Assembly: GCA_965199495.1 (NCBI GenBank)
Contig: CBDASK010000003.1
Coordinates: 3,136,001-3,200,000, forward strand
Direction of reading: 5' to 3'
Length of the DNA stretch: 64,000 nucleotides
Origin: Abditibacterium sp.
GTDB taxonomy: Bacteria; Armatimonadota; Abditibacteriia; Abditibacteriales; Abditibacteriaceae
In this document: positions 3,033 to 62,550 of the stretch, in pieces
Layout of the letters: each line of letters starts with the position of its first letter
Position numbering within the stretch: position 1 is the first letter of the stretch
The notes under the pieces: generated by a model
The model's input: only the letters and a program-made list of their open reading frames with translations
Databases searched by the model: none
What the model was told of the DNA's origin: nothing
Translations under genes and position numbers: made by a program

Positions 3033-4292
3033 TCACTTCATTGCATCGAGCGCCTCACTCAACGCTAAATTGAGTTGCTCGCCCGCATCCAAATCTTTGA
3101 GCGCGACGGTATCCGAAGCCAACTCGTTGTCGCCGATAATTAGCGCATAGCGCGCGCGGCTACGATTGGCCTCACGCATTTGCGCCTTCAGGCTGCGCCC
3201 CACGAAATCGCGGTCGCAACTCAAACCCGCGCCGCGCACGCGCGCCACCAATTGAGGCGCCGCCGCGCGCGCGTTGTCGCCCAGCGTCACCACGAACGCC
3301 GTCAATCGTTCGCGCTCAATCTTGGTTTGTTCCGATGCCGCGCGCACCAACAGCAACCGTTCGATGCCGCAACCGAACCCGATGCCCGGCGTGGCTGCTC
3401 CGCCCAACTCTTCGACCAAACCGTCGTAACGCCCGCCGCCCAAAACGGTGGACTGTGCGCCCAACTTGTCCGAAACCCACTCGAACGCCGTGCGCGAATA
3501 ATAATCGAAACCGCGCACCAGCAGCGAATCCACTTCATAAGCGATTTCTAAATTATCGAGAATCGCGCACACGCGCTCGAAGTGTTCGATAGATTCGCTG
3601 TCATGTTGCCGCAAATACGGCAACAATTCCGGCGCGCCTTCGAGGGCTTGATGATCGCGCTCGTCCTTGGAATCGAAGACGCGTAAGGGATTGGTATCCA
3701 ACCGGCGTTTGGAATCGTCGCTCAAGTTCTCGCGTTGCGGCTCCAAATAATCGCGTAGCCGCGCGATGTAGCCACGGCGGCTTTCCATCGTGCCCAGCGA
3801 ATTGATTTTCAGCGTCGCTTCGATGCCGATTGCGCGCAAAAACTCGGCGCTCAAAGCCAAAACTTCGGCATCGGCATCGGGCGAAGCCGCGCCCAACATC
3901 TCGACGCCGCATTGGTGATGCTGGCGATAACGCCCGGCCTGCACCGCTTCGTAGCGAAAATTCGGTTGAATATAAAACAGCTTGGCGACCGGCCCGCGCT
4001 CGTTGATGTGATGTTCCAAATAAGAGCGCACGACGCCCGCCGTGCCTTCGGGCCGCAATGTATACGATTCGCCGTCCAAAGCCGTGAAGGTATACATCTG
4101 CTTGGTCACCATCACGTCGGACGAGGCGCCGGTCGCGCGCGAAAAAAGTTCGGTTTGTTCAAAGAGCGGCGTGCGGATTTCGTGGAAACCGGCGCGCGCG
4201 CAGATTTGGCGAAACGTCTCTTCGACGAAGCGCCAATCGGCGATCTGTTCGGGCAAAATGTCGTGCGTGCCACGCGGAGATTGATATTTCAT
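3033..4292 (-). CDS. hisS: Histidine-tRNA ligase
   Basis: PRGTHD, LRPEGTAG, LVRGFDYY and GGGRYDGL motifs. Confidence 0.97.
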   Translation of the reverse strand: MKYQSPRGTHDILPEQIADWRFVEETFRQICARAGFHEIRTPLFEQTELFSRATGASSDVMVTKQMYTFTALDGESYTLRPEGTAGVVRSYLEHHINERGPVAKLFYIQPNFRYEAVQAGRYRQHHQCGVEMLGAASPDADAEVLALSAEFLRAIGIEATLKINSLGTMESRRGYIARLRDYLEPQRENLSDDSKRRLDTNPLRVFDSKDERDHQALEGAPELLPYLRQHDSESIEHFERVCAILDNLEIAYEVDSLLVRGFDYYSRTAFEWVSDKLGAQSTVLGGGRYDGLVEELGGAATPGIGFGCGIERLLLVRAASEQTKIERERLTAFVVTLGDNARAAAPQLVARVRGAGLSCDRDFVGRSLKAQMREANRSRARYALIIGDNELASDTVALKDLDAGEQLNLALSEALDAMK

Positions 4293-4342
4293 GGTTTGTG
4301 TTTAGGGTTTGGCAAGCGTTGTAATAGTGGAAGAAAACATTA

Positions 4343-4861
4343 TTATTTGCAAAGCGACAGAATCTGTGCTTCAAATGTGGGAAATTCTGCCTGCGCCCTT
4401 GCGATTATTTCGCTCGGCTTGCTTTGTGAAGTGGTTGAGTTCCGGCGGGCGAATGCGCTAAATTCGGCATCGGGAGTTTTGCCGTCATCCGGGGAAGAGA
4501 TGGCTTCAAGTGGGCCGTGTCCACTGGCTAACAACCATAAATAATCCGAAAAATTTCGGGCGATCACTCCCATTTCGCCCTCAGAACCAAAAAATACGAG
4601 GGGTTGCTCCAAAAGGTCTGATTGCTCTCGGACAAGCCAAAACGCGGCATATCCGCCAGTGCCATCTTGGCCAAAGATTAAGTAGTGGCTCGCGTCCGCG
4701 TTGACATTTCCCGTCCAAGCCCGAAACCAATTTTGAGTGTCTTCGACCGAAAGAAATGTCTCATACGGCTCAAAATCAATGCCCTCGCCATCCAGATAAT
4801 CGAAGGAAAAAGTATGGAGTTGCCGCATTAAAGCGGGCATCTCTATATTATTTGATTCCAT
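4343..4861 (-). CDS. SMI1/KNR4 (SUKH)-like immunity protein
   Basis: FGQDGTGGYAAFW...PLVFFGSEG...IARNFSDYL pattern. Confidence 0.65.
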   Translation of the reverse strand: MESNNIEMPALMRQLHTFSFDYLDGEGIDFEPYETFLSVEDTQNWFRAWTGNVNADASHYLIFGQDGTGGYAAFWLVREQSDLLEQPLVFFGSEGEMGVIARNFSDYLWLLASGHGPLEAISSPDDGKTPDAEFSAFARRNSTTSQSKPSEIIARAQAEFPTFEAQILSLCK

Positions 4862-4863
4862 AT

Positions 4864-6302: not shown

Positions 6303-7363
6303 GCTGAATCCAAAATCGCAATCGGTTCGCGCAGATAACCCGCGACGCTCGCCATGAAAGCTGCTGCGCCGACGCCATTGAGAATGCGATGATCGAAGGT
6401 TAAAACGAAGTTGACGACCTGCTGCCACTCCATGCCGCCATCGTCGGTTTTGACCGGAATATCACTTGGCGTGCCGACAAATAACGTCGCCACGGCGGGG
6501 AAAAGCACGCGAGGCGTGGCCGTCCAGATGTTGTGGCCCGCCATGTAGCTAATCAGCATTTGTGGACGGCCCGGCGTCGCGCGGCCCGCCTGAATGTCGG
6601 TGATGCTGTGGCGCATCGCGTCGAGGAAATTGCCCAGTTCGAGCGTACAGGCGGCGGGCAGAGAAGCCACGCCCAGTTCGTCGTGCGGCAGACCGACGGC
6701 GTTGCCCAGACACACTTCGCTCTGGGTTTCGTAGCCGCGCGCGCCGTTGTTATTGGTCAAAAAGCGCGGGTGATCTTTCATCGCGCGCGTCACGCTCCAC
6801 GCGATCAGTTCGGGCCGCGACGGACGATGATCTAAATTTTGCGATTCGCGCAACGCGTGACAGGTCGGTAGCAGGTTGTCCCACGGAATGCGAACCGTAA
6901 TCGAGGCTTCGGAAATATAATTCTGCGAATCGGAAAACAGTTGACCAAGCCGAACCTGGCGCACCGACAAATCGAGCGGTTCTTCGCGTGGTGCATCGGG
7001 CGCCTTGTTCTTTTGCGCCGCCTTTTCGCGCGGCGACATCGCCCGATTGCGTAGCTTGGAAACCGGCGATGGCGCCGCCGTGGCTGCATCGGAGATGGCG
7101 GCGTGTCCATTGGTTCCGTTGGTATGCGCCAGACTTTCGACGCGCGCGACGACGGTGCCAACGGGAATGGTTTCGCCGGGTTGCACGAGCCATTTGCGCA
7201 GACAACCACCGTGCGGAGTTTCAATTTCCATCACGGCTTTGTCGGTTTCCACTTCGAGCAGAAGCTCGTCTTTCTGAAGCATATCACCCTCGTTTTTGAG
7301 GAGTGCGACGACGCGAACTTCGGTCAGACCTTCGCCCAGTTGGGATATTTTGATTTCGTGCAT
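6242..7363 (-). CDS. 2-oxoacid dehydrogenase E2-like acyltransferase (lipoyl domain plus divergent catalytic domain)
   Basis: EVETDKA lipoyl motif and FDHRILNG; the last ~20 codons lie inside the 6155-6302 repeat. Confidence 0.85.
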   Translation of the reverse strand: MHEIKISQLGEGLTEVRVVALLKNEGDMLQKDELLLEVETDKAVMEIETPHGGCLRKWLVQPGETIPVGTVVARVESLAHTNGTNGHAAISDAATAAPSPVSKLRNRAMSPREKAAQKNKAPDAPREEPLDLSVRQVRLGQLFSDSQNYISEASITVRIPWDNLLPTCHALRESQNLDHRPSRPELIAWSVTRAMKDHPRFLTNNNGARGYETQSEVCLGNAVGLPHDELGVASLPAACTLELGNFLDAMRHSITDIQAGRATPGRPQMLISYMAGHNIWTATPRVLFPAVATLFVGTPSDIPVKTDDGGMEWQQVVNFVLTFDHRILNGVGAAAFMASVAGYLREPIAILDSATEFTEDAQRGTEKGKEIKK

Positions 7364-7518: not shown

Positions 7519-7522
7519 ATTT

Positions 7523-9478
7523 CTACTCTTCCATCGCGCGTCTCACCGCGTTTTTCACATCGTTCACCGAGGGCAAAAGCGCCAACTCTAAATCGGGATG
7601 GAATGGAATATGAGCATCGGCGCGCGCCACGAGTTGCGGGCGCGCCGCCAATTGGTTCCAAAATTCGGCGTCGGTCGTGGCGCGCGAGATAATCGCCTGA
7701 CCGAATCCGCAGGTCTCGTTGTCCTCGTGAACCACGATTAAGCGGCCCGTAACCGAGAGCGAACGTTGAATCGCGGCCCAGTCGCACGGCACGAGCGTGC
7801 GCAAATCCAAAACTTCGACCGATATATCCTCGTTTTCCAGCTCGGCAGCGGCGCTCAACGCGATTTCGACGCCGTTGCCCCACGTCACAATTGTCGCGTC
7901 TTCGCCCGCCAAACGCACGCTCGCGCGGCCAAATCCCTGCGGCGCGGGCACGTCCCATTCCCACTTGCGGCGCAGCAGATGCTTGGGCAACAGAAACACG
8001 ACCGGATCATCGAGCGTGTAGGCCGTCTCCAACAGAGCCACGGCGTCGTGTGGCGTCGAAGGATAGGCCAGCAAAAGTCCGGGAACGTGCGCGAAAAACG
8101 CTTCGCCGCTCTGGCTGTGCCACGGCCCGCCCGACGGCAGATAGCCGCCGCACGGCATGAAGAAAATGCCGGGACACTTCCACGCTCCGTCCGAGCGCCA
8201 GCGCAGCGTCGCCAGTTGGTTCATCAACTGGTTGAGCGCTGTGCCGACGAAATCAACGAATTGAACCTCGAATATCGGCTTCCAGCCCGCGACCGACAAG
8301 CCGGGCGCGGTGCCCATAATCGTCGCTTCGGCGAGCGGCGAATTGAACACGCGGTCGGGATATTTTTTCGACAAACCTTTGGTCAAACCGAACACGCCGC
8401 CCTTGGGGTCTTCGACATCTTCGCCGAAAAATAGCGCGTTTGGCTCGGCGGCAAAGCGGCGATGCAACGCGTCATTGAGCGCGCCCAAAATCGTCTGCGG
8501 TTCGCCGTGATGCCGCGAGCGGGGCGCCGTGGCTGCTCTCGCGTCAGCTTCCATTTCACGATTCGTCCATTGCGACTGCGGCGACGGCGCGTTTTCGGCG
8601 CGCGTGTAATCGGCCTCGACCGATTCGAGAATCGCCCGATGCTCCGTGCGCCAATCGGCCTCGGTCAATTCGCCTTCGCTGATGAGACGCGCTTTCAAAA
8701 GTTCAATCGGATCGCGCGCGCCCATCGCTTCGAGTTCGGCTTGCGGGCGATAAACCCGATGATCGTCCGACGCGGTGTGCGACCACAACCGGTCAATTTC
8801 CAGCCACAAAACGCTCGGCCCGCCACCACTGCGCGCTTCGTCCAATAACTTTTGGCTACAACCATAAACCGCGTGTGCGTTGCGTCCGTTGACGACGAAA
8901 CGTCGCTCCGGCGCGAGCGCGCCGATATTCCACGGCGTCATATTGCCCGTTGGCGTGGTGATGCCATAGCCGTTGTCTTCGACAACGAAAACAATCGGCA
9001 AATTTTCCTGTAACGCGAAACACCACGCTTCGTAGAACTCGCCCTGACGCGTCGAAGCGTCGCCGATGCAGCACAAAACCGCGTGGTTTTCGCCGCGCAG
9101 TTTGAACGCCCACGCCGTGCCCGTCGCGGGCAGACATTGCAAACCCGTTGGCGTCGCGCTGGGGAAAATATTGCGCGCGCGGTCGCTGTAATGGCTCGAC
9201 ATCAGGCGTCCCGCGCTGCACGAACCTGCGCGCGCGAAAAACGCCAATGCCAGATCGTAATTGGAAACGCCGCGCGCGAGGGCGAGGGCGCGCTCGCGGT
9301 AATACGGATAAATATAATCGCCCGGCCCCAGACAATCGGCCAGCACCGCCAGCGTTTCGTGCCCGGCACCCGGCACCTGAATCCAGCCGCGCCCCTGACG
9401 AAAGAGAATGCCTTCGCGCCGGTCGCCTTCGCGCGAAAGCGTCATGGTGCGCAACCAATTGAGGGGAATATTTTCCAT
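7523..9478 (-). CDS. Fused E1 alpha/beta TPP-dependent 2-oxoacid dehydrogenase
   Basis: GDASTRQG...DNGY TPP motif, GEDV..KGGVF, FNSPLAEA and EVLDLRTL. Confidence 0.9.
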   Translation of the reverse strand: MENIPLNWLRTMTLSREGDRREGILFRQGRGWIQVPGAGHETLAVLADCLGPGDYIYPYYRERALALARGVSNYDLALAFFARAGSCSAGRLMSSHYSDRARNIFPSATPTGLQCLPATGTAWAFKLRGENHAVLCCIGDASTRQGEFYEAWCFALQENLPIVFVVEDNGYGITTPTGNMTPWNIGALAPERRFVVNGRNAHAVYGCSQKLLDEARSGGGPSVLWLEIDRLWSHTASDDHRVYRPQAELEAMGARDPIELLKARLISEGELTEADWRTEHRAILESVEADYTRAENAPSPQSQWTNREMEADARAATAPRSRHHGEPQTILGALNDALHRRFAAEPNALFFGEDVEDPKGGVFGLTKGLSKKYPDRVFNSPLAEATIMGTAPGLSVAGWKPIFEVQFVDFVGTALNQLMNQLATLRWRSDGAWKCPGIFFMPCGGYLPSGGPWHSQSGEAFFAHVPGLLLAYPSTPHDAVALLETAYTLDDPVVFLLPKHLLRRKWEWDVPAPQGFGRASVRLAGEDATIVTWGNGVEIALSAAAELENEDISVEVLDLRTLVPCDWAAIQRSLSVTGRLIVVHEDNETCGFGQAIISRATTDAEFWNQLAARPQLVARADAHIPFHPDLELALLPSVNDVKNAVRRAMEE

Positions 9479-9607: not shown

Positions 9608-10837
9608 CTATCGGTTCATGCTCAAACGCGGCAAAGCAACGGTGCGACTGCCGTTGCGCAAATAGCCCTCGTTGCCGCTCATCGCCGTGGCTGGCGCTGG
9701 AGGTTGAGGCTGAAAACGCGCTTGATAATTATAATTCGGCGCTGTTGGGCGCACCGAGGCTTTGGCGACATAAGAAGTGGTCGCGAAAGCCGAGCGTTGA
9801 GGCGCACCGCCGATGTTACCGCCATAAAGCGGCGAGGCGGCGACTTGGCGAAACGCGCTGAGCGCGGCGGGCGTGGAATCGAAACGATAATTCGATTCGC
9901 CCATGTCGGTTTTGTCGCGGAAGAAATAATTGACCAGTCTCACGCGTGGATAACGGTTCGGGATTTCCTGCAAAAACGTGTCGGAAATCCATTGCGCTTT
10001 CGACTGGCCGCGCGGCGCGCCCTGTTCGGTCACGCCCAACTCGGCGATCATCATCGGCTTGTCCGAAATCGCGGTCAGCATACGATAGGAGCCGTCGAAT
10101 AATTGCTCGAACGAACGCCACGGGCGGCGCGCGCCATCATTATAAACCGACAAACCGATCCAATCCACCCACTCGTCGCCCGGATACAAATCACTCAAAT
10201 CAGCGCGCTGGCGTTCCAAAGAGTTGACCGGCGTTTGATAAACGATGTTAGGCGCCCACACCCAACTCGCGTTGGTCGCGCCCTCGACGCGAAAGATGCG
10301 CACCACGCGGCGCCACATATTCACGTAATCCGCCGGAGAATTATTGTTGTTGCGCGCATTATTGGACACATAGGCGGTGCCCCACGGATACCAATCGCCG
10401 TTCATTTCGTGGGCCAATCGAATCAAAACCGGCGCGCCGCTACTCTTGACCGCGCGTGCATATTGGCGAATATACGGATCGTAGGCGCCGCTCGCCACGG
10501 CGCGGCACGACCAACTGCTATCGCGCGCGCCGTTGTCCCACGGCTCCCACGTCACCATCAGGCGCCCGCCGATCTGGCTGGCGCGGCGCGCGCTGCTCAC
10601 GGGAAACTGGTTCCAGCCCGTCCATCCCTGATAAATAGACCACACGGCGGGCAAACGCCCGACCTGCGAACGCCACGCGTCAACCGCCGCGCTATCGCCG
10701 GGCGCGCACATACCGTTACCCAGATAATAATAAGCCCCCAACGCAATGCCGGTCGAAGCCTGAACGCGCGATGAGAGGGCAGAACCCAGCATTGCGGCTA
10801 TTGTGAAGGCGAGTATTGAAATTTTGGGAAACGTCAT
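9608..10837 (-). CDS. Secreted glycoside hydrolase family 26 (mannanase-like)
   Basis: Signal peptide; RLAHEMNGDWYPW, YPGDEWVDWIGLSVYN and KPMMIAELG motifs. Confidence 0.88.
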   Translation of the reverse strand: MTFPKISILAFTIAAMLGSALSSRVQASTGIALGAYYYLGNGMCAPGDSAAVDAWRSQVGRLPAVWSIYQGWTGWNQFPVSSARRASQIGGRLMVTWEPWDNGARDSSWSCRAVASGAYDPYIRQYARAVKSSGAPVLIRLAHEMNGDWYPWGTAYVSNNARNNNNSPADYVNMWRRVVRIFRVEGATNASWVWAPNIVYQTPVNSLERQRADLSDLYPGDEWVDWIGLSVYNDGARRPWRSFEQLFDGSYRMLTAISDKPMMIAELGVTEQGAPRGQSKAQWISDTFLQEIPNRYPRVRLVNYFFRDKTDMGESNYRFDSTPAALSAFRQVAASPLYGGNIGGAPQRSAFATTSYVAKASVRPTAPNYNYQARFQPQPPAPATAMSGNEGYLRNGSRTVALPRLSMNR

Positions 10838-11147: not shown

Positions 11148-12320
11148 ATGCCTCCAATGGTTCCCAATTCTGCCGACGCGCCCGCGATGTCATCTTCGAT
11201 ACAACCCCTCACAAGTTCTGGGCGCGCTTCCCAAACTTCCGCGCTAATGTGGCGCGGCCTGATTCATCATTACCGCAAGCATTTGCCCGTCACCGACGCG
11301 ACGCCCAACATCACCCTGTGCGAAGGCAACACGCCTTTAATTCACGCGCCGCGTCTGGCGCAGCAGATCGCGCCCGACATCGAGCTTTATCTCAAGTTCG
11401 AGGGTACCAATCCCACGGGTTCGTTCAAAGACCGGGGCATGACGATGGCCGTTTCCAAAGCCGCCGAGAAAAACGCGCAGGTCGCGATTTGCGCTTCGAC
11501 AGGCAACACCAGCGCCGCCGCCGCCGCCTACTGCGCCGTGGCTGGCATTGCCTGCGTGGTTCTCATTCCCAACAACAACATCGCGCTGGGCAAATTAGCT
11601 CAGGCCTTAATCGAGGGCGCGACGGTTCTGGCCATCGAAGGCAACTTCGACGACGCCCTGAACATCGTGCGCGATTTGACCCAATCGCATCCGATTGAAC
11701 TGTTGAACTCGGTCAATCCCTATCGCATCGAGGGCCAGAAAACCGGCGCTTTCGAGGTCTGCGATTTTCTGGGTCACGCGCCCGATTACCATTTCGTGCC
11801 CGTCGGCAACGCGGGCAATATCACCGCGTATTGGAAAGGCTACCGCGAATATCACGCGGCGGGAGTTATCAATAGCTTGCCGAAAATGTGTGGATTTCAA
11901 GCGGCGGGCGCGGCGCCGCTGGTTTTGGGCCATAACGTGGACGCGCCCGAAACAGTAGCCACGGCGATCCGCATTGGTCACCCGGCGCGCGGCACCGAGG
12001 CGATTCAAGCGCGCGACGAATCGGGCGGCCTCATCGGCAGCGTCACCGACACCGAAATTTTGCAAGCGCAAAGCCTGACGGCGGCGCTATCGGGCGTCTT
12101 CGGCGAACCGGCGTGCGCCGCGCCGATTGCTGGAATCAAGAAATTATCCGCGCAAGGCTATTTTCGCGACGCGCGCGAAAAGTTGGGCCGCAAACCAATC
12201 GTCGTTTCGGTCGTAACGGGCCACGGCCTCAAAGACCCCGAAACCGCGATTCGCAACAGCGGCGCCCCGATTGTCGTGCCCGCCCGCAACGAAGACGTTC
12301 TGCGCGCAATTGGCTTTTAA
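11148..12320 (+). CDS. thrC: Threonine synthase (start may be downstream, e.g. 11187)
   Basis: NPTGSFKDRG, CASTGNTS, PVGNAGN and TGHGLKDP motifs. Confidence 0.92.
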   Translation: MPPMVPNSADAPAMSSSIQPLTSSGRASQTSALMWRGLIHHYRKHLPVTDATPNITLCEGNTPLIHAPRLAQQIAPDIELYLKFEGTNPTGSFKDRGMTMAVSKAAEKNAQVAICASTGNTSAAAAAYCAVAGIACVVLIPNNNIALGKLAQALIEGATVLAIEGNFDDALNIVRDLTQSHPIELLNSVNPYRIEGQKTGAFEVCDFLGHAPDYHFVPVGNAGNITAYWKGYREYHAAGVINSLPKMCGFQAAGAAPLVLGHNVDAPETVATAIRIGHPARGTEAIQARDESGGLIGSVTDTEILQAQSLTAALSGVFGEPACAAPIAGIKKLSAQGYFRDAREKLGRKPIVVSVVTGHGLKDPETAIRNSGAPIVVPARNEDVLRAIGF

Positions 12321-12335
12321 AAGCGCATCAAAAAT

Positions 12336-12370
12336 AAACGCCCCGCGACGAAAATCGCGGGGCGTTTGTT
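12336..12370. terminator. Intrinsic terminator after thrC
   Basis: aaacgccccgcga-cgaaaa-tcgcggggcgtttgtt hairpin. Confidence 0.8.
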
Positions 12371-12409
12371 GTTAAAGTTGGACTGTTTCAATTTGTTAAA
12401 GTGGGATAT

Positions 12410-12439
12410 GGCGTTTGACGATGTATTTTCTTGTTCGAC
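12410..12439 (-). other. Truncated attC remnant (R'' half) of cassette 4
   Basis: Minus strand GTCGAACaagaaaatacatcgtcaaacgcc resembles the left halves of the other attC sites; no R' half found. Confidence 0.45.
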
Positions 12440-12454
12440 GGCTAATTGTCTATA

Positions 12455-13060
12455 TTAGCCCCATTCTGGAATCCACATAAATGGAAGATGAGACCAGAAA
12501 TCAATACGTTTGGGCTTCTTCAATTTGGGACATGGATTACTAATTTTGAACTCATGTGCTAAATAACTGGGCAAATCTAAGCCGTAATAAATGATGTCCG
12601 TTTGCTATACAGAATAAATTGGATTGCCTTCAGCATGAGGAGAATCTGGCATATACCGATGGCCATAAATTGGGATCAGTGTTGGCGCTTAGTTCACTTT
12701 TTCATGAGCGATGGCACAAGCCTCCTCATCAGATGCAGGGCGTACGCCCCAATCGTCCATCCAAAAATTGTTATTTTTGATGTCGAAACACATGCCCTCA
12801 TAAGGCCAATTTAGCCTGTCCCGAATTTGGTTCTCGTCCTCAAAACGCCAGTTTGGAAACGGGTTCTTGTGCGTGCGTGCTGGATTAGGCGGCAGCGAAA
12901 CCGGCAACGCCATCTGCAAAAACATCTTCAGGTCAGGCGGGAACACGAAGCTAAATTTATTCTCTACGGCTTCGATTTCAGCGTCGGACAAACCATCTTC
13001 AAAAATGATTCCAAATTCTCGAAGTTGCTCGATTGCTACTTGGCAATATTCTGTATCCAT
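12455..13060 (-). pseudogene. SMI1/KNR4-family immunity gene with two in-frame stops
   Basis: The frame continues past TAA (12689-12691) as APTLIPIYGHRYMP...GNPIYSV and past TAG (12605-12607) as QTDIIYYGLDL...IDFWS, ending at TAA 12455. Confidence 0.85.
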
Positions 13061-13104
13061 GCTCAGATTCTAACATATCGCGCTTATACAAGCCGCGCGC
13101 AGCG

Positions 13105-13208
13105 ATGGAACACCAAGCTCATCCGCCGCCAGACGCGGAGTGAAACGGAACGACGAATGACTGAAACGAACGGAGCTGTGGGCGATTGGGTGTGGCACTT
13201 TGTTCTGC
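13105..13208 (-). other. attC site of cassette 3 (104 bp)
   Basis: GCAGAACaaagtgccacacccaatcgcc...ggcggcggatgagcttggtGTTCCAT imperfect palindrome just after the stop codon. Confidence 0.8.
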
Positions 13209-13229
13209 CGGTGTTGAGACGCTTTATTC

Positions 13230-13712: not shown

Positions 13713-13753
13713 ACCATCTTTAATTGTAGCAACTACATCCAAGCCGCGCGCCA

Positions 13754-13778: not shown

Positions 13779-13782
13779 TGTT

Positions 13783-14979: not shown

Positions 14980-14984
14980 TGCTG

Positions 14985-52440: not shown

Positions 52441-53742
52441 TTATAACTTTCGGCCCAGCGCTTTCTCAAACGAAGCCAAATTCGCCTCGATTTGCATCGG
52501 CTGGCCGATTTTACCAGCCACGGCCTCGACGGTCTTCAAGCCGCCGCCGGTGATATAAGCCACTGTCACTTCGTCGGGCTTGATATGGCCGCTCTCGGCC
52601 ATTTTTTTCAGGTTGGCGATGGTGACGCCGCCCGCCGTTTCGCCCCAGATGCCTTCGGTTTCGGCCAACAATTGAATGCCTTCAACGACTTCTTCGTCGG
52701 TCACAGCGCCCGCCGCGCCATTTGTGGAGCGCATGGTTTCGAGCGCGTAAATGCCGTCGGCAGGATTGCCAATCGCCAGACTTTTGGCGATAGTGTTGGG
52801 TTTAACCGGCGTCACGAAATCCAAACCTTCGGCGAACGCTTTAGCGACGGGCGAACAGCCTTGCGCTTGCGCGCCCGAAACGCGGAAATCTTTTTGATCA
52901 ATTAAACCGAGCTTCATCAGCTCGTTGAAACCTTTATGAATTTTGGTCAGCATCGAACCCGACGCGATGGGAATCACGACGTGATCGGGCGCGACCCAGC
53001 CCAATTGTTCGGCGACTTCGTAGGCCAGAGTTTTGCTGCCTTCCGAGTAAAACGGGCGCACGTTGACGTTGACAAACGCCCAATCGGTGCGGTCGGCGAT
53101 TTCGGCGCACAAACGGTTCACTTCGTCGTAGTTGCCCTTGACGGCGACCAAGTTCGGCTTGTAAATCAGCGACCCCATGACTTTGCCGCTTTCCAAATCG
53201 GACGGAATAAAAACGTAGGCTTTCATGCCCGCGCGCGCGGCGTGCGCGGCCACGCTGTTGGCCAAATTGCCCGTCGAAGCGCAAGCGGCGGTGTCGAACC
53301 CGAACTCAACGGCGCGACTCAACGCGGTCGAAACGACGCGATCTTTGAAGCTCCAAGTTGGATTGGCCGTATCGTTTTTGATGTAAAGATTTTTGATGCC
53401 CAATCGTTTGCCCAGATTATGAGCTTTGACGAGCGGCGTAAATCCGGCGCCAATGTCAACGGCGGGCGTGCCTTCGACGGGCAATAAATCTTGATAACGC
53501 CAGATCGAGCGCGGGCCTTTTTCGATTTTTTCGCGCGAGATTTGACCGGCGATAACGTCGTAATCGTATTGGACTTCGAGCGGGCCAAAACACAATTCGC
53601 AAACGTGTTTGGGTTCGATGGGATACTCGGCGCCACATTCGCGGCAGGTGAGATTTTTGAGGCGCGATGCGCGCGGTGCGGCGGAAGTTTTTCCGTTGGC
53701 GTGGCCGTTGGTGGACGGCGTTGGGAGAGTTTCTGTGGACAA
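52441..53742 (-). CDS. thrC: Threonine synthase-like PLP enzyme with an N-terminal Zn ribbon (second paralog)
   Basis: CREC...CELC, NPTWSFKDR and ASTGNLA motifs; TTG start at 53742 after AAGGA. Confidence 0.85.
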   Translation of the reverse strand: MSTETLPTPSTNGHANGKTSAAPRASRLKNLTCRECGAEYPIEPKHVCELCFGPLEVQYDYDVIAGQISREKIEKGPRSIWRYQDLLPVEGTPAVDIGAGFTPLVKAHNLGKRLGIKNLYIKNDTANPTWSFKDRVVSTALSRAVEFGFDTAACASTGNLANSVAAHAARAGMKAYVFIPSDLESGKVMGSLIYKPNLVAVKGNYDEVNRLCAEIADRTDWAFVNVNVRPFYSEGSKTLAYEVAEQLGWVAPDHVVIPIASGSMLTKIHKGFNELMKLGLIDQKDFRVSGAQAQGCSPVAKAFAEGLDFVTPVKPNTIAKSLAIGNPADGIYALETMRSTNGAAGAVTDEEVVEGIQLLAETEGIWGETAGGVTIANLKKMAESGHIKPDEVTVAYITGGGLKTVEAVAGKIGQPMQIEANLASFEKALGRKL

Positions 53743-53895: not shown

Positions 53896-54507
53896 TCACT
53901 TTTCGGGCCGAACGGAAATCTCTGTGTCGTCAATTTCTTGGCGCAACGGCATGTTGCGGCCAAGGTTTCGGACATCGGCGAGCAAAGCAGCCAATCCGCG
54001 CGCGCCGAAAAGTAAGTAAAGACCGAGCGCGATTTCTACGAAAGTGTAAACCAAATTGGGCGCAAAACCCGTCCAATCTCGCTGGAATATGGCGTCTTGC
54101 GATTTGATGTTCCACGCGCGAACTAAAAGTTGCGTGAGGCGCGGCAGGGCAAGCGTCAAAACGTAAGCGCCCAAAACGGAAAACGCGAGTTGTTGGATCT
54201 CTTGATTTGTGGAAATGGGCACAACTTTTTCGTTGCGCTCGCCGACCATTTTTGCAGCCACGAAATCGGCTTCCATCCACAAAAATCCGGCAAAAATGAG
54301 CAGCAACGCTATGGGCGAAAGATAAATTAACGCCACCCAAAGTGACAGTGGAACAAAGCCGATGGGCGATTCCATTCTTGGAAACTGGTCGGGATTGAAC
54401 GCTTCATAAAAGGACGGCAGCAAAAACGCGCTCGCTTGAATAACGCTGATTAACGCCACAATCGACAAAATTCGGCACGCCAGCGCCGCCACAGAACGCA
54501 AATTCAT
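53896..54507 (-). CDS. Hypothetical membrane protein
   Basis: Four hydrophobic segments. Confidence 0.6.
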   Translation of the reverse strand: MNLRSVAALACRILSIVALISVIQASAFLLPSFYEAFNPDQFPRMESPIGFVPLSLWVALIYLSPIALLLIFAGFLWMEADFVAAKMVGERNEKVVPISTNQEIQQLAFSVLGAYVLTLALPRLTQLLVRAWNIKSQDAIFQRDWTGFAPNLVYTFVEIALGLYLLFGARGLAALLADVRNLGRNMPLRQEIDDTEISVRPEK

Positions 54508-54516: not shown

Positions 54517-55083
54517 TTACTCGATGTCGGTTGGCACATTCCAATTACTAAACATTTTTAAATTTTCATCGAACTCGCGCGCGACTTCGGGCGCGATAAA
54601 ATGGGCGCCAATTTCTTCCAAAACGCGACGAAGCGGTGGCATTTTGCCTTCGATTCGCAAATATCGCTCGAAAAACGGCGTCGCCGTGGCTGCATAGATC
54701 GCGTGCAACGGCTCGAAGCCGTCGTCGGATAAAGGCACGCGCGCGATTCCGTCGAAATCTCGAATCAAGTAGCGAATGAAATCGGCGTTTAAATATGGCA
54801 TATCGCACGCGACGACAAACGTTGGCGCGCCAAAATGAGACAATGCGGCGTGAATGCCGCCGAGCGAGCCGCGATTGAGGAAGACATCAGCCACGGCGGG
54901 CAATCCGGCGGCGCGTGCGATAGTTGGATTGGCGGTGACGACGATGATTTCGTCGAAAATTGGCGTCAGAATTTGCGCGATATGCGCAATGAGCGGTTGG
55001 CCGTTGAACGGAATTAACGCTTTATCGCGGCCCATGCGCGACGATTTGCCGCCCGCGATTATCGCGGCGCGCGTGACGTTCAT
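54517..55083 (-). CDS. mobA: Molybdenum cofactor guanylyltransferase
   Basis: AGGKSSRMGRDKA, GSLGGI, ACDMP and EPLHAIY motifs. Confidence 0.92.
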   Translation of the reverse strand: MNVTRAAIIAGGKSSRMGRDKALIPFNGQPLIAHIAQILTPIFDEIIVVTANPTIARAAGLPAVADVFLNRGSLGGIHAALSHFGAPTFVVACDMPYLNADFIRYLIRDFDGIARVPLSDDGFEPLHAIYAATATPFFERYLRIEGKMPPLRRVLEEIGAHFIAPEVAREFDENLKMFSNWNVPTDIE

Positions 55084-57412: not shown

Positions 57413-59374
57413 TTAGCGAGCGACCTCATTCACTTGCGCCCACGCGCGTAGCGTTTCGGCGACGCTCCACGCTTGCGCGAAACAGCCGCGTGTCTGGTGC
57501 GGCGCGGCGCCGTCGAATATCTCGGAAATCGAACCTAATCCGGCTTCGTCCAGATGCGCGATCATCGGTTGCAGCCACGTTTGCACCTGCGCTTTGGATT
57601 CGTCGCTTTCGGCGTTGACGTGCAAATAGGCGCTCAAAAACGGCCCCAAAAGCCAGCCCCACACCGTGCCCTGATGATACGCCGAATCGCGTTGCCACTG
57701 GTCGCCTTCGTAATACGGACGATAGCGCGAATCGCGCGGCGACAGCGAACGAAGCCCAACGGGCGTTAGTAACTCGCGCTGCACGACTTCGACGACCGCT
57801 TTGTTTTGCTCGTCGCTCAATAATTGATGCGGCAGCGAAACCGCGAAAATTTGGTTGGGCCGAATCGCGCCATCCTTGGAGTTGTCGTCAATGCAATCGT
57901 AAAGGCAATTTTCGGCTTCGTTCCAAAACGCGTCGGGAAAACTCGCGGCGATTTTGCGGCTCCACTCGGTGCAAATCGCCGCCGTATTGTGATCGTCAAA
58001 GCAACGCCCCCATGTCGCCATTTCGCATAACGCGTTAAACCACAACGCCTGAATTTCGACGGCTTTGCCCGACCTCGGCGTGAAAGCTGTGTCGCCGACT
58101 TTGGCGTCCATCCACGTTAATTGCGTGTTTTTGTCGCCCGCGCGCAACATCCCGTCATCGTCGTCGGCCACGATGCCGTAGCGCGTGCCCGCCAGATGCC
58201 ATTCGATGCTCTCGACCAACTTCGGATAAAGTTCCTGCACCGTTTTCCAGTCGCCCGAAATATGACCGTATTGAAAGACCGCGTGAAAGAACCATAATGT
58301 GCCGTCCACGGTATTATAATCGGGCGTTTCGTTGCCTTCGGGAAAGCGATTGGGAATCATGCCTTGACTCATCGCGCCCGCGAAACTGCGCAAAATCGAG
58401 GCGGCGATGTCGTATCGTTTCGTCGTCAAACACAAGCCGGGCAGGGCAATCATGGTGTCGCGGCCCCAGTCGGTGAACCACGGATAACCCGCCAAAACCG
58501 TATGCAAACCGTCGGCGCGCCGCACGATGAATTGGTCGGCGGCCAACTCCAAGCGTGCCGTGGCTGCACCCCAGTCGTCGCTCTGAATTAAGCCGCGTTT
58601 ATATTCGATATTCTTTTGCTCAGATTTAGCGGCAGTTTCCAAATCAATCGGTTCAATCGAAGCCGCGAATAATTTGGACGCCTTAACTTCGAGCGACAGA
58701 GAAAAATAACCGGGACAAAACGCGTCTTCGCTACTTTCCAAACCGCGCTCTTTTTCGAGCGGCCATTGAAAGCCATAATACCAATTTTCGTCGGCACAAA
58801 ACCGCCCATCGCTCGCCAGATGAACCGGCGGTTGCGAGGGATAAGGCCGCATTGAAAGCGCGCTTTGATCGGCGTTGAGTTCGATATTTTTATCGAACTC
58901 AGCGTTGACGCGTTGCTCCGAATGATACGAGCGCGGCGCCAAAAACGCGCGCACCTGCAACTCGCAATGTGGCCCGCTTTTGAGTTCGTAACGCGCAACC
59001 GACACGTTTTTGTGCGCTTCCATCCAAATCGTTTTCTCGATGACGATTTCGCCTTCGTCGGTCGGCACGCGATACGTCCAGCGCGGAAGCGGAGCCATCT
59101 CGAAATTTTCGATGAACAAATCGCCGCGCGGTGAAACGTCATTGGGCCAGAAGTTGGTGCCGAGGGGATAAGTTTTGCCGTCGCAAATCACGGTATCTTC
59201 GATTTTGGTGACCAAAACGCGACGATCTTGCGGGCCGTTTAGGGCCGCGCACAAAAACGCGTGATAGCGGCGCGTGACAGCGCCCGCAACGCTGCCGCTG
59301 GCAAAAGCTCCACTGCCGTTGGTGGCGAGCCACTCGTTATAAAATCGGCGCGTCGGCGCCCATTGGGGAATCAT
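57413..59374 (-). CDS. Amylo-alpha-1,6-glucosidase (glycogen debranching enzyme family)
   Basis: EWLATNG.G, AGYPWFTDWGRD, LTWMDA, AYHQGTVW and QAWSVAE motifs. Confidence 0.9.
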   Translation of the reverse strand: MIPQWAPTRRFYNEWLATNGSGAFASGSVAGAVTRRYHAFLCAALNGPQDRRVLVTKIEDTVICDGKTYPLGTNFWPNDVSPRGDLFIENFEMAPLPRWTYRVPTDEGEIVIEKTIWMEAHKNVSVARYELKSGPHCELQVRAFLAPRSYHSEQRVNAEFDKNIELNADQSALSMRPYPSQPPVHLASDGRFCADENWYYGFQWPLEKERGLESSEDAFCPGYFSLSLEVKASKLFAASIEPIDLETAAKSEQKNIEYKRGLIQSDDWGAATARLELAADQFIVRRADGLHTVLAGYPWFTDWGRDTMIALPGLCLTTKRYDIAASILRSFAGAMSQGMIPNRFPEGNETPDYNTVDGTLWFFHAVFQYGHISGDWKTVQELYPKLVESIEWHLAGTRYGIVADDDDGMLRAGDKNTQLTWMDAKVGDTAFTPRSGKAVEIQALWFNALCEMATWGRCFDDHNTAAICTEWSRKIAASFPDAFWNEAENCLYDCIDDNSKDGAIRPNQIFAVSLPHQLLSDEQNKAVVEVVQRELLTPVGLRSLSPRDSRYRPYYEGDQWQRDSAYHQGTVWGWLLGPFLSAYLHVNAESDESKAQVQTWLQPMIAHLDEAGLGSISEIFDGAAPHQTRGCFAQAWSVAETLRAWAQVNEVAR

Positions 59375-59411: not shown

Positions 59412-60254
59412 TTACTGCAAATATCGTCCAAAGAAACGTGCGATGCGCGCGTCGGCCTGGGCGCGCGCGTTCTTCAATCCATGCGCTTCGCCCGCGTAAA
59501 CCTGAAAATCCACCGTCGCGCCCGCCGCCTTTAATTTTTGATACAATTTTTCGCTTTGTTGAAGTGGCACGAATTCGTCGGCATCGCCGTGCAACAGCAA
59601 AATCGGTGGCGCATATTCGTCGGCGTAAAATAATGGACTGGCGCGCTGGGCCAAATCGGCTTTTTGCTGAACTGTGCCGCCCAACAATCGTGTGAGCGGC
59701 GACAAAGGCGCGTTCCAATCTAAACCCGCGCCGTTGTTTAAGCTGAGCAAATCGGTCGGCGCGCTTTCGAGCGCGGCGCATTTGACACTCGAACTCGTCA
59801 GCGCCAACAATCCGGCCAAATGTCCGCCCGTCGAAATTCCGTAAACGCCGATTTTGGCGGCATCGAGCGAATAATTTTTGGCGTGTTGCTTAATAAAGCC
59901 AATCGCCGCTCGACAATCGTCAATTTGCGCCGGATAAACCGCGTCATCGCTGGAGCGGAACTCGACAGCAGCCACGGCGAAGCCCAACTTCGCCAAATTC
60001 CACGCGGCGCTGTTGAGTTTTTCGTAAGAGCCGGTGCGCCACGCGCCGCCGTGCAGATAAATCACGACCGGTAACGCGGTTTTGGGCAATGGATTGGGCC
60101 GCGACAACAACAGATGCAATTGGTGTTTGCCGATTTTGGAATAGACGATTTCACGTTTAACACCAACGCCCTGCGGCGGCGTGGCTGTTGATTTTTGTGC
60201 GTGCGCGGCGGGCGCAAAAATGGAGCAAAGCGCGATTGCCCAAAGGATTTTCAT
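59412..60254 (-). CDS. Secreted alpha/beta hydrolase (esterase)
   Basis: HGGAW, GISTGG and HGDAD...H motifs. Confidence 0.88.
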   Translation of the reverse strand: MKILWAIALCSIFAPAAHAQKSTATPPQGVGVKREIVYSKIGKHQLHLLLSRPNPLPKTALPVVIYLHGGAWRTGSYEKLNSAAWNLAKLGFAVAAVEFRSSDDAVYPAQIDDCRAAIGFIKQHAKNYSLDAAKIGVYGISTGGHLAGLLALTSSSVKCAALESAPTDLLSLNNGAGLDWNAPLSPLTRLLGGTVQQKADLAQRASPLFYADEYAPPILLLHGDADEFVPLQQSEKLYQKLKAAGATVDFQVYAGEAHGLKNARAQADARIARFFGRYLQ

Positions 60255-60331: not shown

Positions 60332-60382
60332 AAAGCGGGCATATTTATAACTAAAACAAAGTGGAAGAATCGCGTTCTAAAC

Positions 60383-61642
60383 TCACTCCGCCGTCCTGTT
60401 CAAACCGGCAAACGAGTGCGCGCCATCACGGGCGAACGGCAAATCGGTGGGGCGACCGTTAGTGAAGACGATTTGATGCACATAAACGTCTTCGACGCGC
60501 AGGCTGGCCGCCGAAAATTGCAGATACAAACGCCACATTCGCACGAACTCAGCGCCGTATTTCGCCTCGACCCAATTCACCTCGCGCTCGAAATTTTCGG
60601 CCCATTTGTCGAGTGTGAGCGGATAATTCGGGCCTATATTTTCCACATCCCAGATAATTAAATCTTCGCGCGTCAGTTCGCGCACGATTTCGGAAATACC
60701 GGGAATATAGCCGCCGGGGAAAATATATTTGACCAGCCACGCGCTCGTCGGCTCCTCGACGATGCCGGTGATGCAGTGCAATAATCCGACGCCGCCCGGT
60801 TTGAGCAATTTTTTCAAAGCCGCGATATAGCCGGGCAAATTGTGACGCCCGACGTGTTCGGCCATGCCGACGCTGACGATTTTATCGAAACGCTCGCCGC
60901 GCTCAACGAGGGTTTGATAGTGCAACAATTCCATTTCGGCACTCGCGCCATCAGGCAGTTCGGGCCGATGCGCCTGAAACCATTCGAGTTGCTCTTGGCT
61001 GAGCGTAATTCCCAGCGCTTTAGCGCCTTTGTCGCGCGCGGCGCTCGCAATCAGCGCGCCCCAACCGCAACCGACATCGAGCAGAGTTTCGCCCGGCTGC
61101 AAGCGCAATTTGCTGAGAACGTGGCGAATTTTACGCTGTTGGGCGTCTTCCAAATCGCCGTTTCCGCCGTCGAAATAAGCGCACGAATAACTCATCGTCG
61201 GGTCGAGCCAGCGCCAGTAAAACTCGTTGCCCAAATCGTAATGATGACTGACATCGCGGCGGTGCGCGCCGATGGAAAGCGGGCGGGCGCGCGCGATAAT
61301 CGTCGCGGCGCCAAACAATCGCTCCAAAATCCACGGCATCGGCGCGTCGTTGGCGTCCAAAATCCGCAGCAAATCGTCGAGCGAACCATCAATTTCGATT
61401 TGGTCGCGCATGATCGCCTCGCCAAACGCGAGTTCCGGGTCAACCAGCAGACGCGGCACCAATTTCGCGTCGCGCAAACGCAGACCGACGCGCGGCAAAC
61501 CGTTTCCTAAAACAGCGCGCGTGCCGTCCCAAAATGTGAGATCAATGGTGCCGCCGCGCAGCTTGCGCCCGCCGCGCCGAATTAAACGTTTGTAAAGATT
61601 GATAGCAAATTCCTCGGTAGGCGCTGTTAAAATGCGCGCCAT
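60383..61642 (-). CDS. cfa: Cyclopropane-fatty-acyl-phospholipid synthase family methyltransferase
   Basis: HHYDLGNEFY, MSYSCAYF, LDVGCGWG and KYIFPGG motifs. Confidence 0.9.
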   Translation of the reverse strand: MARILTAPTEEFAINLYKRLIRRGGRKLRGGTIDLTFWDGTRAVLGNGLPRVGLRLRDAKLVPRLLVDPELAFGEAIMRDQIEIDGSLDDLLRILDANDAPMPWILERLFGAATIIARARPLSIGAHRRDVSHHYDLGNEFYWRWLDPTMSYSCAYFDGGNGDLEDAQQRKIRHVLSKLRLQPGETLLDVGCGWGALIASAARDKGAKALGITLSQEQLEWFQAHRPELPDGASAEMELLHYQTLVERGERFDKIVSVGMAEHVGRHNLPGYIAALKKLLKPGGVGLLHCITGIVEEPTSAWLVKYIFPGGYIPGISEIVRELTREDLIIWDVENIGPNYPLTLDKWAENFEREVNWVEAKYGAEFVRMWRLYLQFSAASLRVEDVYVHQIVFTNGRPTDLPFARDGAHSFAGLNRTAE

Positions 61643-61731
61643 TGCCACCGAGTTTGCCAGAGCTAAAGCGTTTGGGGCATCGAATCTGAGCCGACTCTTA
61701 ACCGCGCGAAACGCGCCGTGCCACTACGAAA

Positions 61732-62550
61732 CTAAAACGACTGATTTTCATCGTTTTCGCGTGCCTGCGCCTCGCGAATCAAACGCCGTTCTTTAATCGA
61801 AACTTGAATCGCGCGAACCATCAACGGCCCCATCATCCAGAATATAATCCAAGTCAATAACAATAATTTTATCGGTTCGCCGATTTTAATATCATAGACA
61901 ATCACATAATAAGCTGGAACCATCGCGAGTGCAAGATAAAATATGGCCCACAAAAGCAACGTGCTGACGCGCACGATTTTCCACGTCAGTGATTTCCCCG
62001 ACCAATCCACGTTATTGAAACTTCTTACCGCTAACTCGTGTGTATTGGCGGGCACGAACGGTTTTTCAACTCGCTTGCCTTGTAATTGCGCTTCGACAAA
62101 ACGCCACAATTCGCGCCGTTGCACGATGATTTTGTTCGACGATTTAAGAACGTGGGCGAAACCTTGAAACACGATTTCGCCGCGCGCATTCAGCAGAACC
62201 GGTTCGACGTGGCTGCGTCGCTCAGCGTGATAGCGCGGGTTAAAATCGAGGTAATAACTTTCGACCTGTGACCAAAGCACACTTTGGCGAAAAAAGCCGT
62301 TGAATTGCGAAATCCCGTCGCGGTCGGCGCGAATAGAATAGCGCATGATCGGCCAAAAGCAAAAGAAAAATCCGCTCAAAAATAATCCGAGCGCAATCGC
62401 CAAAATTGGATGCGGCGCTGGCCCACTGAATATCGGCAGCCACGGCGAAACGCAACACGCCAAGCCCGCGACGATAAACGGCAAAGCGACGACCGAAGCA
62501 AATATTTTTTGCCACAGCGCGCTTTTGACTTCAACAAAATCGGATTGCAC
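61732..62550 (-). CDS. Hypothetical membrane protein
   Basis: Four TM segments around a soluble domain. Confidence 0.6.
   Translation of the reverse strand: MQSDFVEVKSALWQKIFASVVALPFIVAGLACCVSPWLPIFSGPAPHPILAIALGLFLSGFFFCFWPIMRYSIRADRDGISQFNGFFRQSVLWSQVESYYLDFNPRYHAERRSHVEPVLLNARGEIVFQGFAHVLKSSNKIIVQRRELWRFVEAQLQGKRVEKPFVPANTHELAVRSFNNVDWSGKSLTWKIVRVSTLLLWAIFYLALAMVPAYYVIVYDIKIGEPIKLLLLTWIIFWMMGPLMVRAIQVSIKERRLIREAQARENDENQSF

Follow-up and report, generated by a model that had tools for sequence, protein, structure and literature searches.

A hyper-abundant octamer with strand-specific spacing in three related Abditibacterium genomes, a candidate self-DNA signal

The octamer CGTGGCTG is dispersed over the 64,000-nucleotide stretch of Abditibacterium chromosome analysed here (the window; C3:3136001-3200000 of genome G000, which has 3 contigs and 4.81 Mb in all, with a chromosome of 4.72 Mb). 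A pattern search found 45 copies in the window, 23 on the plus and 22 on the minus strand and at every coordinate that an earlier note on this DNA had listed, where 100 dinucleotide-preserving shuffles gave 2.03 ± 1.34 (largest 6; 0/100 reach 45). Along the chromosome, copies on the same strand exclude each other over ~1 kb and opposite-strand copies are independent, which is a new finding. All 45 copies lie inside called coding sequences (CDS; crude, self-made calls of the longest codon-usage-scored open reading frames, giving 3,575 genes and 84.8% coding in G000), and the host genes in the window are ordinary housekeeping genes, encoding histidyl- and prolyl-tRNA synthetases (HisRS, ProRS), 2-oxoacid dehydrogenase E1/E2, pyridoxal-phosphate (PLP) enzymes, pantothenate kinase, phosphoglycerate mutase, a PilT-type ATPase and others. 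The location in genes had been claimed before, as had the use of all six frames (sense-2 17, antisense-1 16, sense-1 8, antisense-2 2, sense-0 1, antisense-0 1), the encoded peptides (xVAx, xAT, xWL, RGC, QPR and xSHx) and a variant, TAGCCACG, at 3769, 5688, 11956 and 29056, and all of this was recovered. A GC content of ~58% had also been estimated; the chromosome has 55.7%, and the window 49-58% in 4-kb bins.

The copies are given here from left to right with strand, frame and peptide in brackets. The minus-strand genes for histidyl-tRNA synthetase (3033-4292), 2-oxoacid dehydrogenase E2 (6242-7363) and an E1 dehydrogenase (7523-9478) each carry one plus-strand copy in antisense frame 1 (AAT), at 3390..3397, 7079..7086 and 8528..8535, respectively, and a GH26-like gene, 9608-10837(-), carries 9686..9693 (+; antisense 1, PAT). 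Next come a PLP-enzyme gene, 11148-12320(+), with 11537..11544 (+; sense 2, AVAG), an NAD(P)H-hydrate dehydratase gene, 15626-16528(-), with 16348..16355 (-; sense 2, RVAA), and a glutathione synthetase gene, 16573-17667(-), with 17392..17399 (+; antisense 1, AAT). Two copies, 18112..18119 (-; sense 1, AWL) and 19498..19505 (+; antisense 1, AAT), share the gene at 17893-19845(-), and single ones follow at 20531..20538 (-; sense 2, AVAA) in gene 20052-20942(-), 21651..21658 (-; sense 1, AWL) in gene 21522-21938(-), 22469..22476 (+; sense 2, DVAA) in gene 22017-22799(+) and 24094..24101 (+; sense 1, TWL) in a UDG-superfamily gene, 23745-24293(+).

For several of the remaining sites the state in related genomes (G011, G004 and G006) is added. 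The gene at 25757-27763(-) holds four copies: 25799..25806 (-; sense 1, TWL; present in G011, absent from G004 and G006), 26729..26736 (-; sense 1, AWL; retained in G011 only), 26954..26961 (+; antisense 1, TAT; found only in G000, with CGTGGCGA in G011) and 27157..27164 (-; sense 2, AVAG; retained in G011). The prolyl-tRNA synthetase gene, 28055-29830(-), has 28186..28193 (-; sense 2, AVAV), which is G000-only with 3 adjacent bases differing in the orthologues, and 28883..28890 (+; antisense 1, AAT), common to G011 and G004. The pantothenate kinase gene, 30064-30828(-), has 30564..30571 (-; sense 2, AVAD; retained in G011). Gene 33507-34604(+) contains 33955..33962 (-; antisense 1, TAT), a one-off CAGCCACA in G011, and 34301..34308 (+; sense 2, DVAA), common to G004, where G011 has CGTGGCTA; gene 34771-36363(+) contains 35928..35935 (+; sense 2, GVAA; common to G011 and G004) and 36035..36042 (-; antisense 1, TAT; retained in G011); and gene 36936-38204(-) contains 37325..37332 (-; sense 2, AVAV; G000-only, 4 differences from G011) and 38028..38035 (+; antisense 1, AAT; common to G011 and G004). 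Beyond the copy in the phosphoglycerate mutase gene, 38359-40185(-), at 39319..39326 (+; antisense 1, PAT; retained in G011), an AraC-type regulator gene, 40242-41174(-), has 40247..40254 (-; sense 2, AVAA) and 41009..41016 (+; antisense 2, PSHA), and an E1 dehydrogenase gene, 43522-44544(-), has 43620..43627 (-; sense 2, AVAA) and 43807..43814 (+; antisense 1, AAT; retained in G011).

To the right of these, gene 48457-48840(+) carries 48525..48532 (+; sense 2, DVAV), and the two frame-0 copies, 50950..50957 (-; sense, RGC) and 51361..51368 (+; antisense, QPR), share a chorismate-binding enzyme gene, 50412-51662(-). Single copies lie at 52515..52522 (-; sense 2, AVAG) in a PLP-enzyme gene, 52441-53886(-), and at 54255..54262 (-; sense 2, FVAA) in gene 53896-54507(-). 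Pairs occupy gene 54517-55083(-), at 54685..54692 (+; antisense 1, AAT) and 54888..54895 (-; sense 2, AVAD); a glycogen debranching enzyme gene, 57413-59374(-), at 57572..57579 (-; sense 1, TWL) and 58559..58566 (+; antisense 1, AAT); and a hydrolase gene, 59412-60254(-), at 59969..59976 (-; sense 2, AVAA) and 60180..60187 (+; antisense 1, TAT). The last three copies are 60734..60741 (-; sense 1, AWL) in a cyclopropane-fatty-acid-synthase-like gene, 60383-61648(-), and 62208..62215 (+; antisense 2, RSHV) and 62437..62444 (-; sense 1, PWL) in gene 61732-62550(-).

The G000 chromosome contains 3,083 copies, 1,525 forward and 1,558 reverse (0.65/kb), against 234 expected from an order-3 Markov model (13x, z = 186), and CGTGGCTG is the top over-represented 8-mer of the genome; raw k-mer counts are topped by CpG-rich words (CGCGCGC and similar) despite 55.7% GC. 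The excess persists under an order-4 model and is swallowed by models of order 5 and 6 because these are trained on the word's own sub-words. When codons were shuffled synonymously within each gene (20 shuffles), the 2,862 copies in CDS compared with 269.6 ± 14.2 (maximum 313), a 10.6x excess to which each of the six frames contributes (3.5-23x). Non-coding DNA holds 211 copies against 19.1 from a model trained on non-coding DNA alone, an 11x excess. Thus, the signal resides on the DNA and is independent of coding. That selection or drive acts on DNA rather than on protein, as the earlier note had argued, is strongly supported by the synonymous shuffle, by the non-coding enrichment and by conservation within divergent flanks (see below); of the tests that it had named as able to dissolve the enrichment, the codon-preserving shuffle and the Markov models of order 3 and 4 left it standing.

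The word extends beyond its eight bases to CGN-CGTGGCTG-CT, with C in 75% of sites at -3, G in 82% at -2, C in 58% at +8 and T in 49% at +9. These preferences are equal in the 221 non-coding or edge sites and the 2,862 coding sites and are therefore not codon artefacts. Positions 2-7 (GTGGCT) are strict, single-mismatch variants there occurring at 0.2-1.7x of expectation, whereas positions 1 and 8 are tolerant (1.4-4.1x); overall, internal one-off variants are slightly depleted (0.6-1.1x per position).

CGTGGCTG shows no polarity along the chromosome. No 200-kb bin has a strand bias of the word, and the maximal polarity over every origin/terminus bipartition on a 50-kb grid is 52.4%, so the skew of Chi, of the FtsK-orienting polar sequences (KOPS) and of architecture-imparting sequences is not seen and the earlier dismissal of Chi and KOPS on this ground was right. 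The chromosome itself is almost free of GC skew and lacks gene-strand bias, and its replichore structure is not visible. Word density varies neither along gene bodies nor between gene classes, apart from the tenth of genes with the least native-like codon usage, where it is 0.39/kb as against ~0.75/kb in the others. The two small contigs, of 24.7 kb and 64.6 kb, have 2 and 6 copies (0.08-0.09/kb, about chance level; 5 of the 6 on the larger, C2, lie on one strand, a count too small to interpret), and 13 gaps of more than 9 kb, about half of them low in GC, are free of the word. Like DNA uptake sequences (DUS), CGTGGCTG is thus under-represented in recently acquired DNA, that is, in small replicons, gaps and genes of atypical codon usage. 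The window offers an example of such a motif-poor island at 12321..15625, a motif-free stretch in a 49% GC bin with atypical genes and codon usage, weak SUKH-1/SMI1-KNR4 and TPR matches and no tRNA, which is probably a small acquired islet.

What is new about the word is its spacing. Of the pairs of neighbouring sites on the chromosome, 1,940 have their members on opposite strands and 1,142 on one strand, a departure of ~14 standard deviations from 50:50. Relative to a uniform expectation, same-strand pairs occur at 0.10 below 60 bp, 0.25 at 60-200 bp, 0.29 at 200-400 bp, 0.42 at 400-600 bp, 0.65 at 600-800 bp, 0.78 at 800-1000 bp, 0.87 at 1000-1500 bp and about 1.0 beyond 1500 bp, whereas opposite-strand pairs remain at 0.87-1.24 of expectation at all distances beyond 60 bp and tight inverted pairs (n = 97; 58 -/+ and 39 +/-) are slightly enriched (1.3-2.0). 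For isolated sites the same/opposite ratio was 0.28 at 60-400 bp, 0.49 at 400-800 bp and 0.74 at 800-1500 bp; 40 abundance-matched 7-mers gave means of 1.15 and 1.09 and minima of 0.47 and 0.61, and CGTGGCTG falls outside all 40. The earlier description of the word as strand-neutral therefore holds for its counts (1,525/1,558) and fails for its spacing.

Several features characterize this exclusion: (i) it follows the DNA strand and not transcript sense, since between genes of opposite orientation there are 32 vs 61 same-DNA-strand pairs at 60-800 bp (baseline, 801 vs 758 at 2-4 kb) and sense-sense and antisense-antisense pairs are both depleted; (ii) it is graded, edge variants partly avoiding perfect same-strand sites (0.57-0.82) and internal one-offs not (0.81-1.25); and (iii) it is repeated in 400-kb samples of G004 (adjacent sites, 104 same and 172 opposite) and G011 (73 and 127). 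The pattern fits a pay-off that saturates per strand per ~1 kb and a reader whose action is confined to one strand and to tracts of kilobase size. Two benchmarks, both small, do not reproduce it. In ~0.77 Mb of non-redundant Neisseria-type metagenome contigs, retrieved via the published DUS terminator pair, the same/opposite ratio was 0.76-1.0 for all sites and, for 429 single sites, 0.57 (28 vs 49) at 60-400 bp and 0.90 beyond. Among the first 100 forward Chi sites of Escherichia coli K-12, 13 same-strand pairs lie within 800 bp against 15.1 expected, with a coefficient of variation of the gaps of 1.02.

How widely is the word distributed? The 9-mer form was counted in 27 genomes of the family and is abundant only in G000, G011 and G004 (1,783, 1,411 and 972 copies; controls ~140), the other 24 being at control level. 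Nucleotide identity to G000 is 85-91% for G011, 78-85% for G004 and 67-79% for G006, G009 and G012, and by this measure the first three genomes are each other's closest relatives and form one clade. Further work on relatives (spacing, k-mers, alignments) used samples of 159-400 kb each. Word density in G011 is 0.55/kb; the flank consensus differs in G004, and the word is common to all three species. No hyper-abundant 8-mer emerged from 200-kb samples of G009, G012 and G010, which leaves the idea of word 'dialects' unsupported there; the G006 sample has a different word, TCTCTGTG, with 46 copies in its 200 kb (0.23/kb), a 20x excess.

Sites are conserved between genomes beyond codon conservation, as has been described for the cyanobacterial octamer HIP1. 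Across a 20-kb orthologous region, 10/16 aligned sites are retained in G011 and 4/14 in G004, as against 0/11, 0/5 and 0/6 in G006, G009 and G012. Over ~200-240 kb aligned, site identity is 67.8% from G000 to G011 and 77.3% from G011 to G000, compared with 36.4% for control 8-mers, and 27.4% and 48.9% with G004, compared with 26.5%; CGTGGCTG sites are about twice as well conserved as control 8-mers. Divergence within 6 bp is higher around conserved sites than around conserved controls (0.327 vs 0.148 with G004; 0.161 vs 0.114 with G011), so that the preserved word forms an island amid permissive sequence. In lineage-specific sites the difference is mostly at position 7 (95/122 vs G004), a synonymous alanine change from both GCG and GCC and therefore not a single mutation type. 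They also show an excess of at least three differences (45% vs 22-30%); import of the flanks at such multi-difference sites was considered and rejected, flank divergence there resembling that of controls.

G004 has a second, longer form of the word. The form ...GTAGGACGTGGCTGGTGTC... has a density of 340/Mb there, compared with 2/Mb in G000 and 0 in G011, whereas the short form CGTGGCTGCT is common to the three genomes (142-184/Mb). Along G004:C8:100001-500000, 136 long-form sites consist of 21-nt GTAG-headed arms in which the CGTGGCTG core is embedded, 32 of the arm pairs forming hairpin doublets of a single arrangement with a modal offset of 36 bp, and both Y1_Tnp genes of this 400-kb sample lie within ~450 bp of such an element. 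A GTAG head is carried by repetitive extragenic palindromic (REP) sequences, and the family is REPIN-like (REPIN, REP doublet forming hairpins). Its arm contains a 7/8 match to the E. coli Chi octamer, probably a coincidence. The G000 chromosome has a REP-like GTAG-headed consensus of its own, tcCGTAGAGACaCCGAtTTaTCGcGTCTAAAACGT (294 copies), whose 8-mer GTAGAGAC is 12x over-represented. The window also carries, at 27836-27975, a ~140-bp element resembling a miniature inverted-repeat transposable element (MITE), with two long inverted arms, no CGTGGCTG and both-strand matches at many places in G011 and G004, as well as short intergenic repeats at 38243-38346 and 29890-30040 with many copies in G004 and/or G011. 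Gene 17893-19845(-) encodes a 649-aa bacterial protein that strongly matches (E 2e-82) the microtubule-associated tyrosine carboxypeptidase family, MATCAP.

What reads CGTGGCTG? The observations to be accommodated are its excess, its independence of coding, its conservation, its restriction to one clade, its absence from plasmids and islands, and the spacing rule. We infer that the reader is linked to recombination or uptake and recognizes the word on single-stranded DNA. By analogy with DUS and with the uptake signal sequences (USS) of Pasteurellaceae, the reading we lean towards, tentatively, is a self-DNA signal linked to transformation and recognized in a single-strand step. CGN-CGTGGCTG-CT, with its core GTGGCT, would then be a lineage-specific 'self' mark in the long-resident chromosomal DNA of one Abditibacterium clade, held in place by a force acting on the DNA itself. 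Word-bearing DNA would have an advantage in uptake, protection or recombination, through which substitutions that create the word, mostly synonymous, would spread at permissive positions. The reader would handle one strand at a time in ~1-kb stretches, in each of which it would need roughly one copy on either strand; a further same-strand copy within ~1 kb would be redundant and hence neither built nor kept, and copies on the other strand would be irrelevant. The decisive recognition or pay-off would fall at a single-strand stage. Single-strand transformation of Neisseria shows strand preference.

The word is like DUS (Neisseriaceae, ComP receptor) and USS in a number of respects. Those words also number in the thousands at ~1/kb, far above the expectation from composition, are equally frequent in both orientations without replichore polarity, and lie in genes at permissive positions and in several frames. 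They share with CGTGGCTG a core with graded flanks, one-off variants near background, sites conserved above controls, new sites often several bases off their homologues, some tight inverted pairs and a shortage in recently acquired DNA, and the differing flank consensus of G004 may be likened to a dialect. The one-off spectrum was tried as a means of telling CGTGGCTG from DUS and fails, since one-offs of the DUS 10-mer are also low in the benchmark (1.8x). G000 encodes a full competence gene set (ComEC, ComEA, DprA, several secretins and a PilT-type ATPase), and a T2SSE/PilT-type ATPase gene does lie in the window, as had been noted (31882..32967, minus strand); it is given as context, with no demonstrated link to CGTGGCTG. 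Of the genes proposed earlier as worth seeking, ComEA was thus found, and RecBCD (RecC, 0/31 genomes) and an AddAB-like nuclease were not.

Published work on uptake sequences provides further parallels. Treangen et al. 2008 report that the spacing between DUS corresponds to how long conversion tracts are, ~1.1 kb, and that new DUS diverge too much for point mutations (PMC2397512), a divergence which the multi-base excess of lineage-specific CGTGGCTG sites resembles; the word 'orientation' is absent from the available part of that text. Mora et al. 2020 count 109 tight USS pairs, 69 -/+ and 40 +/-, compared with the 58 and 39 of CGTGGCTG, and report that two USS within 100 bp give no increase in uptake (PMC7811141).

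Other observations weigh against an uptake sequence. The absolute density of CGTGGCTG is lower in non-coding than in coding DNA (0.31/kb vs 0.72/kb), unlike that of DUS, and its enrichment of 13x as an 8-mer and 51x as a 10-mer compares with 95x for the DUS 10-mer in the benchmark. Its tight pairs lie mostly inside genes (82/97 in called CDS, 10 intergenic, 5 at gene edges) and not, like DUS pairs, at terminators between genes. An orientation-blind double-strand receptor predicts exclusion between opposite strands, which is absent, and in genuine DUS the deficit of same-orientation pairs is weak at best and limited to distances below 400 bp, as against the strong exclusion over ~1 kb found here. 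The competence genes located are all generic, and bacteria without an uptake sequence commonly have them too. Finally, the word belongs to another phylum (Abditibacteriota, near Armatimonadota) and is confined to 3/27 genomes of its family, whereas DUS and USS each span a whole family. The uptake reading, which the earlier note had raised, is therefore favoured by density, strand balance, near-background one-offs, permissive residence, absence from plasmids and islands, and competence genes, and is opposed by the strand-specific spacing.

Alternatively, and with a lower but appreciable probability, CGTGGCTG could be the site of another strand-specific reader concerned with chromosome maintenance (replication, choice of the strand to repair, segregation or the self-marking of defence), with a status like that of HIP1 (GCGATCGC). 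The alternative that the earlier note had offered, a binding site for a nucleoid or recombination protein, may equally apply. Both CGTGGCTG and HIP1 are hyper-abundant octamers in and between genes, and HIP1 is reported to be conserved by selection on DNA, above background inside variable flanks, and to lack an assigned function (PMC5861425). Neither the DUS nor the Chi benchmark gives the spacing rule, and its scale of ~0.5-1 kb would fit several tract-limited processes. HIP1 differs in being palindromic, and it cannot therefore have strand-specific spacing; CGTGGCTG is not its own reverse complement, and HIP1 had rightly been set aside on that account. HIP1 also spans most of a phylum, with a reported periodicity of 10-90 kb. 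Against a maintenance reader, no candidate protein or modification enzyme is tied to CGTGGCTG, and a housekeeping role is not obviously compatible with background density on co-resident plasmids, nor would it obviously arise in only 3/27 genomes of the family.

A Chi-like control signal or nuclease self-marker is unlikely, although it explains the spacing: a helicase-nuclease travelling from a DNA end would read one strand and switch from degradation to repair, so that each orientation would serve one direction of travel, same-strand copies would exclude each other and opposite-strand copies would be independent. The word shares with Chi its octamer length, its non-palindromic form and its enrichment in resident chromosomal DNA, and it is at background on plasmids; its lack of polarity is less damaging to this idea because the genome has neither GC skew nor gene-strand bias. 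However, no RecBCD-, AddAB- or AdnAB-type helicase-nuclease was found: the PDDEXK_1 family has only 2 matches in G000, an open frame of 299 aa and a fusion of 1,421 aa, neither AddAB- nor AdnAB-like. Moreover, E. coli Chi lacks the exclusion in the sites sampled, and CGTGGCTG exceeds it ~3x in density and also exceeds it in enrichment (13x, as against ~4x over the reversed word, 1,008 Chi sites vs 240). Divergence asymmetry around oriented CGTGGCTG sites was 0.009 ± 0.007, no signal for a sample of this size.

The candidate reader for such a signal would be the fusion protein, encoded at C3:4111368-4115630, which joins an N-terminal PD-(D/E)XK nuclease to a C-terminal SF1B helicase (AAA_11/AAA_12). 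Its best solved relatives are the helicase cores of DNA2 and Upf1, the structures matching the helicase cores only; no curated family passes its cut-off for the protein, and NCBIfam and PADLOC match helicase cores only. The nearest characterized bacterial relative in kind, likened by description only, is Bad of Geobacillus stearothermophilus, a DNA2-like enzyme with both domains in one chain, for which the available part of the report describes no sequence-specific recognition (PMC7430649). The gene adjoins one for a bacterial topoisomerase IB; in G000:C3:4106001-4124000 the minus strand encodes a TPR protein, the topoisomerase IB, the Dna2-like nuclease-helicase and a beta-propeller protein, a possible operon. 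The Dna2-like gene carries 4 alternating CGTGGCTG sites and is thus long resident, and among the 13 genomes of the genus it was found only in G000, G004 and G011. The trio being one clade, this co-occurrence counts as a single evolutionary event, and it is only a co-occurrence, with two counter-examples. Only a remnant is left in G011, which covers residues 680-1421 and contains a frameshift and a TGA, with no nuclease half in 3 kb upstream; yet neither the density of 0.55/kb nor the one-off spectrum shows any decay of the word there. The second is G016, where 159 kb contain no abundant word in spite of a homologue with 45% identity. The idea that homologue-bearing genomes have words of their own was not upheld. 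G017, with a 42% homologue and no Y1 transposase detected, has a perfect 24-26-bp palindrome, aaaaAGTACGGTCGAATTCGACCGTACTtttt, flanked by A and T runs, which forms 193 half-sites and 61 tight pairs in G017:C14:400001-600000 (~1 half-site/kb), shows exclusion in both orientations and looks like a bidirectional terminator.

Just as doubtful, the word might be neither an uptake sequence nor a classical Chi but an instance of a new class of genome-wide signals that are read on a single strand at a time, 'one copy per strand per kilobase', for example the Chi-equivalent of a single-strand-threading Dna2-like nuclease-helicase.

It is very improbable that CGTGGCTG is a functionless by-product of codon or amino-acid usage or of a mutation or repair bias such as methylation-linked deamination, very-short-patch-type repair or biased gene conversion. 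Most new sites do result from a single synonymous change at position 7, and the slight depletion of internal one-offs looks as if they were drained into the perfect word. However, the source states at position 7 include both G and C, the enrichment is equal in non-coding DNA and survives the synonymous shuffle, co-resident plasmids are unaffected and sites are conserved above controls. A purely local bias, moreover, cannot sense a same-strand copy 100-1,000 bp away or generate a dependence on neighbours at up to 1 kb.

Least credible of all is the view that the word is what a small mobile element (REP/REPIN or MITE) left behind when a Y1 transposase spread it: this has in its favour the G004 arms and doublets with their nearby Y1_Tnp genes and the presence of such genes in 25/27 family genomes, and is likely for those doublets, but it is rejected for the dispersed single copies of G000, of which 2,862/3,083 lie in called CDS in all frames, where word-less orthologues align through base substitutions, mostly without gaps, where the long form is virtually missing while the short form is found in all three genomes, and where the genome's own MITE- and REP-like repeats lack CGTGGCTG.

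To our knowledge, only two families, both proteobacterial, have established uptake sequences, and for decades no function has been assigned to HIP1. A literature search found nothing, among the matches listed, on CGTGGCTG or on uptake sequences in the phylum (the search on phylum and competence was untargeted), and primers and unrelated matches were all that a search of full texts for the octamer gave. No less extreme as a genome word, CGTGGCTG belongs to a small clade of soil and rock bacteria in a phylum that has hardly been studied. Its strand-specific exclusion over ~1 kb, graded by the quality of the match, constrains the reader to action on one strand in kilobase tracts, and the question of what reads hyper-abundant genome words becomes directly testable; the spacing signature is, moreover, a simple statistic applicable to other genomes. 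If the word does represent a new class of signal, it could, for instance, be a Chi-equivalent in a phylum with RecC in 0/31 genomes and, in G000, no AddAB-type nuclease. With 3 of the 27 family genomes carrying it, the word is young, so that its birth can be reconstructed.

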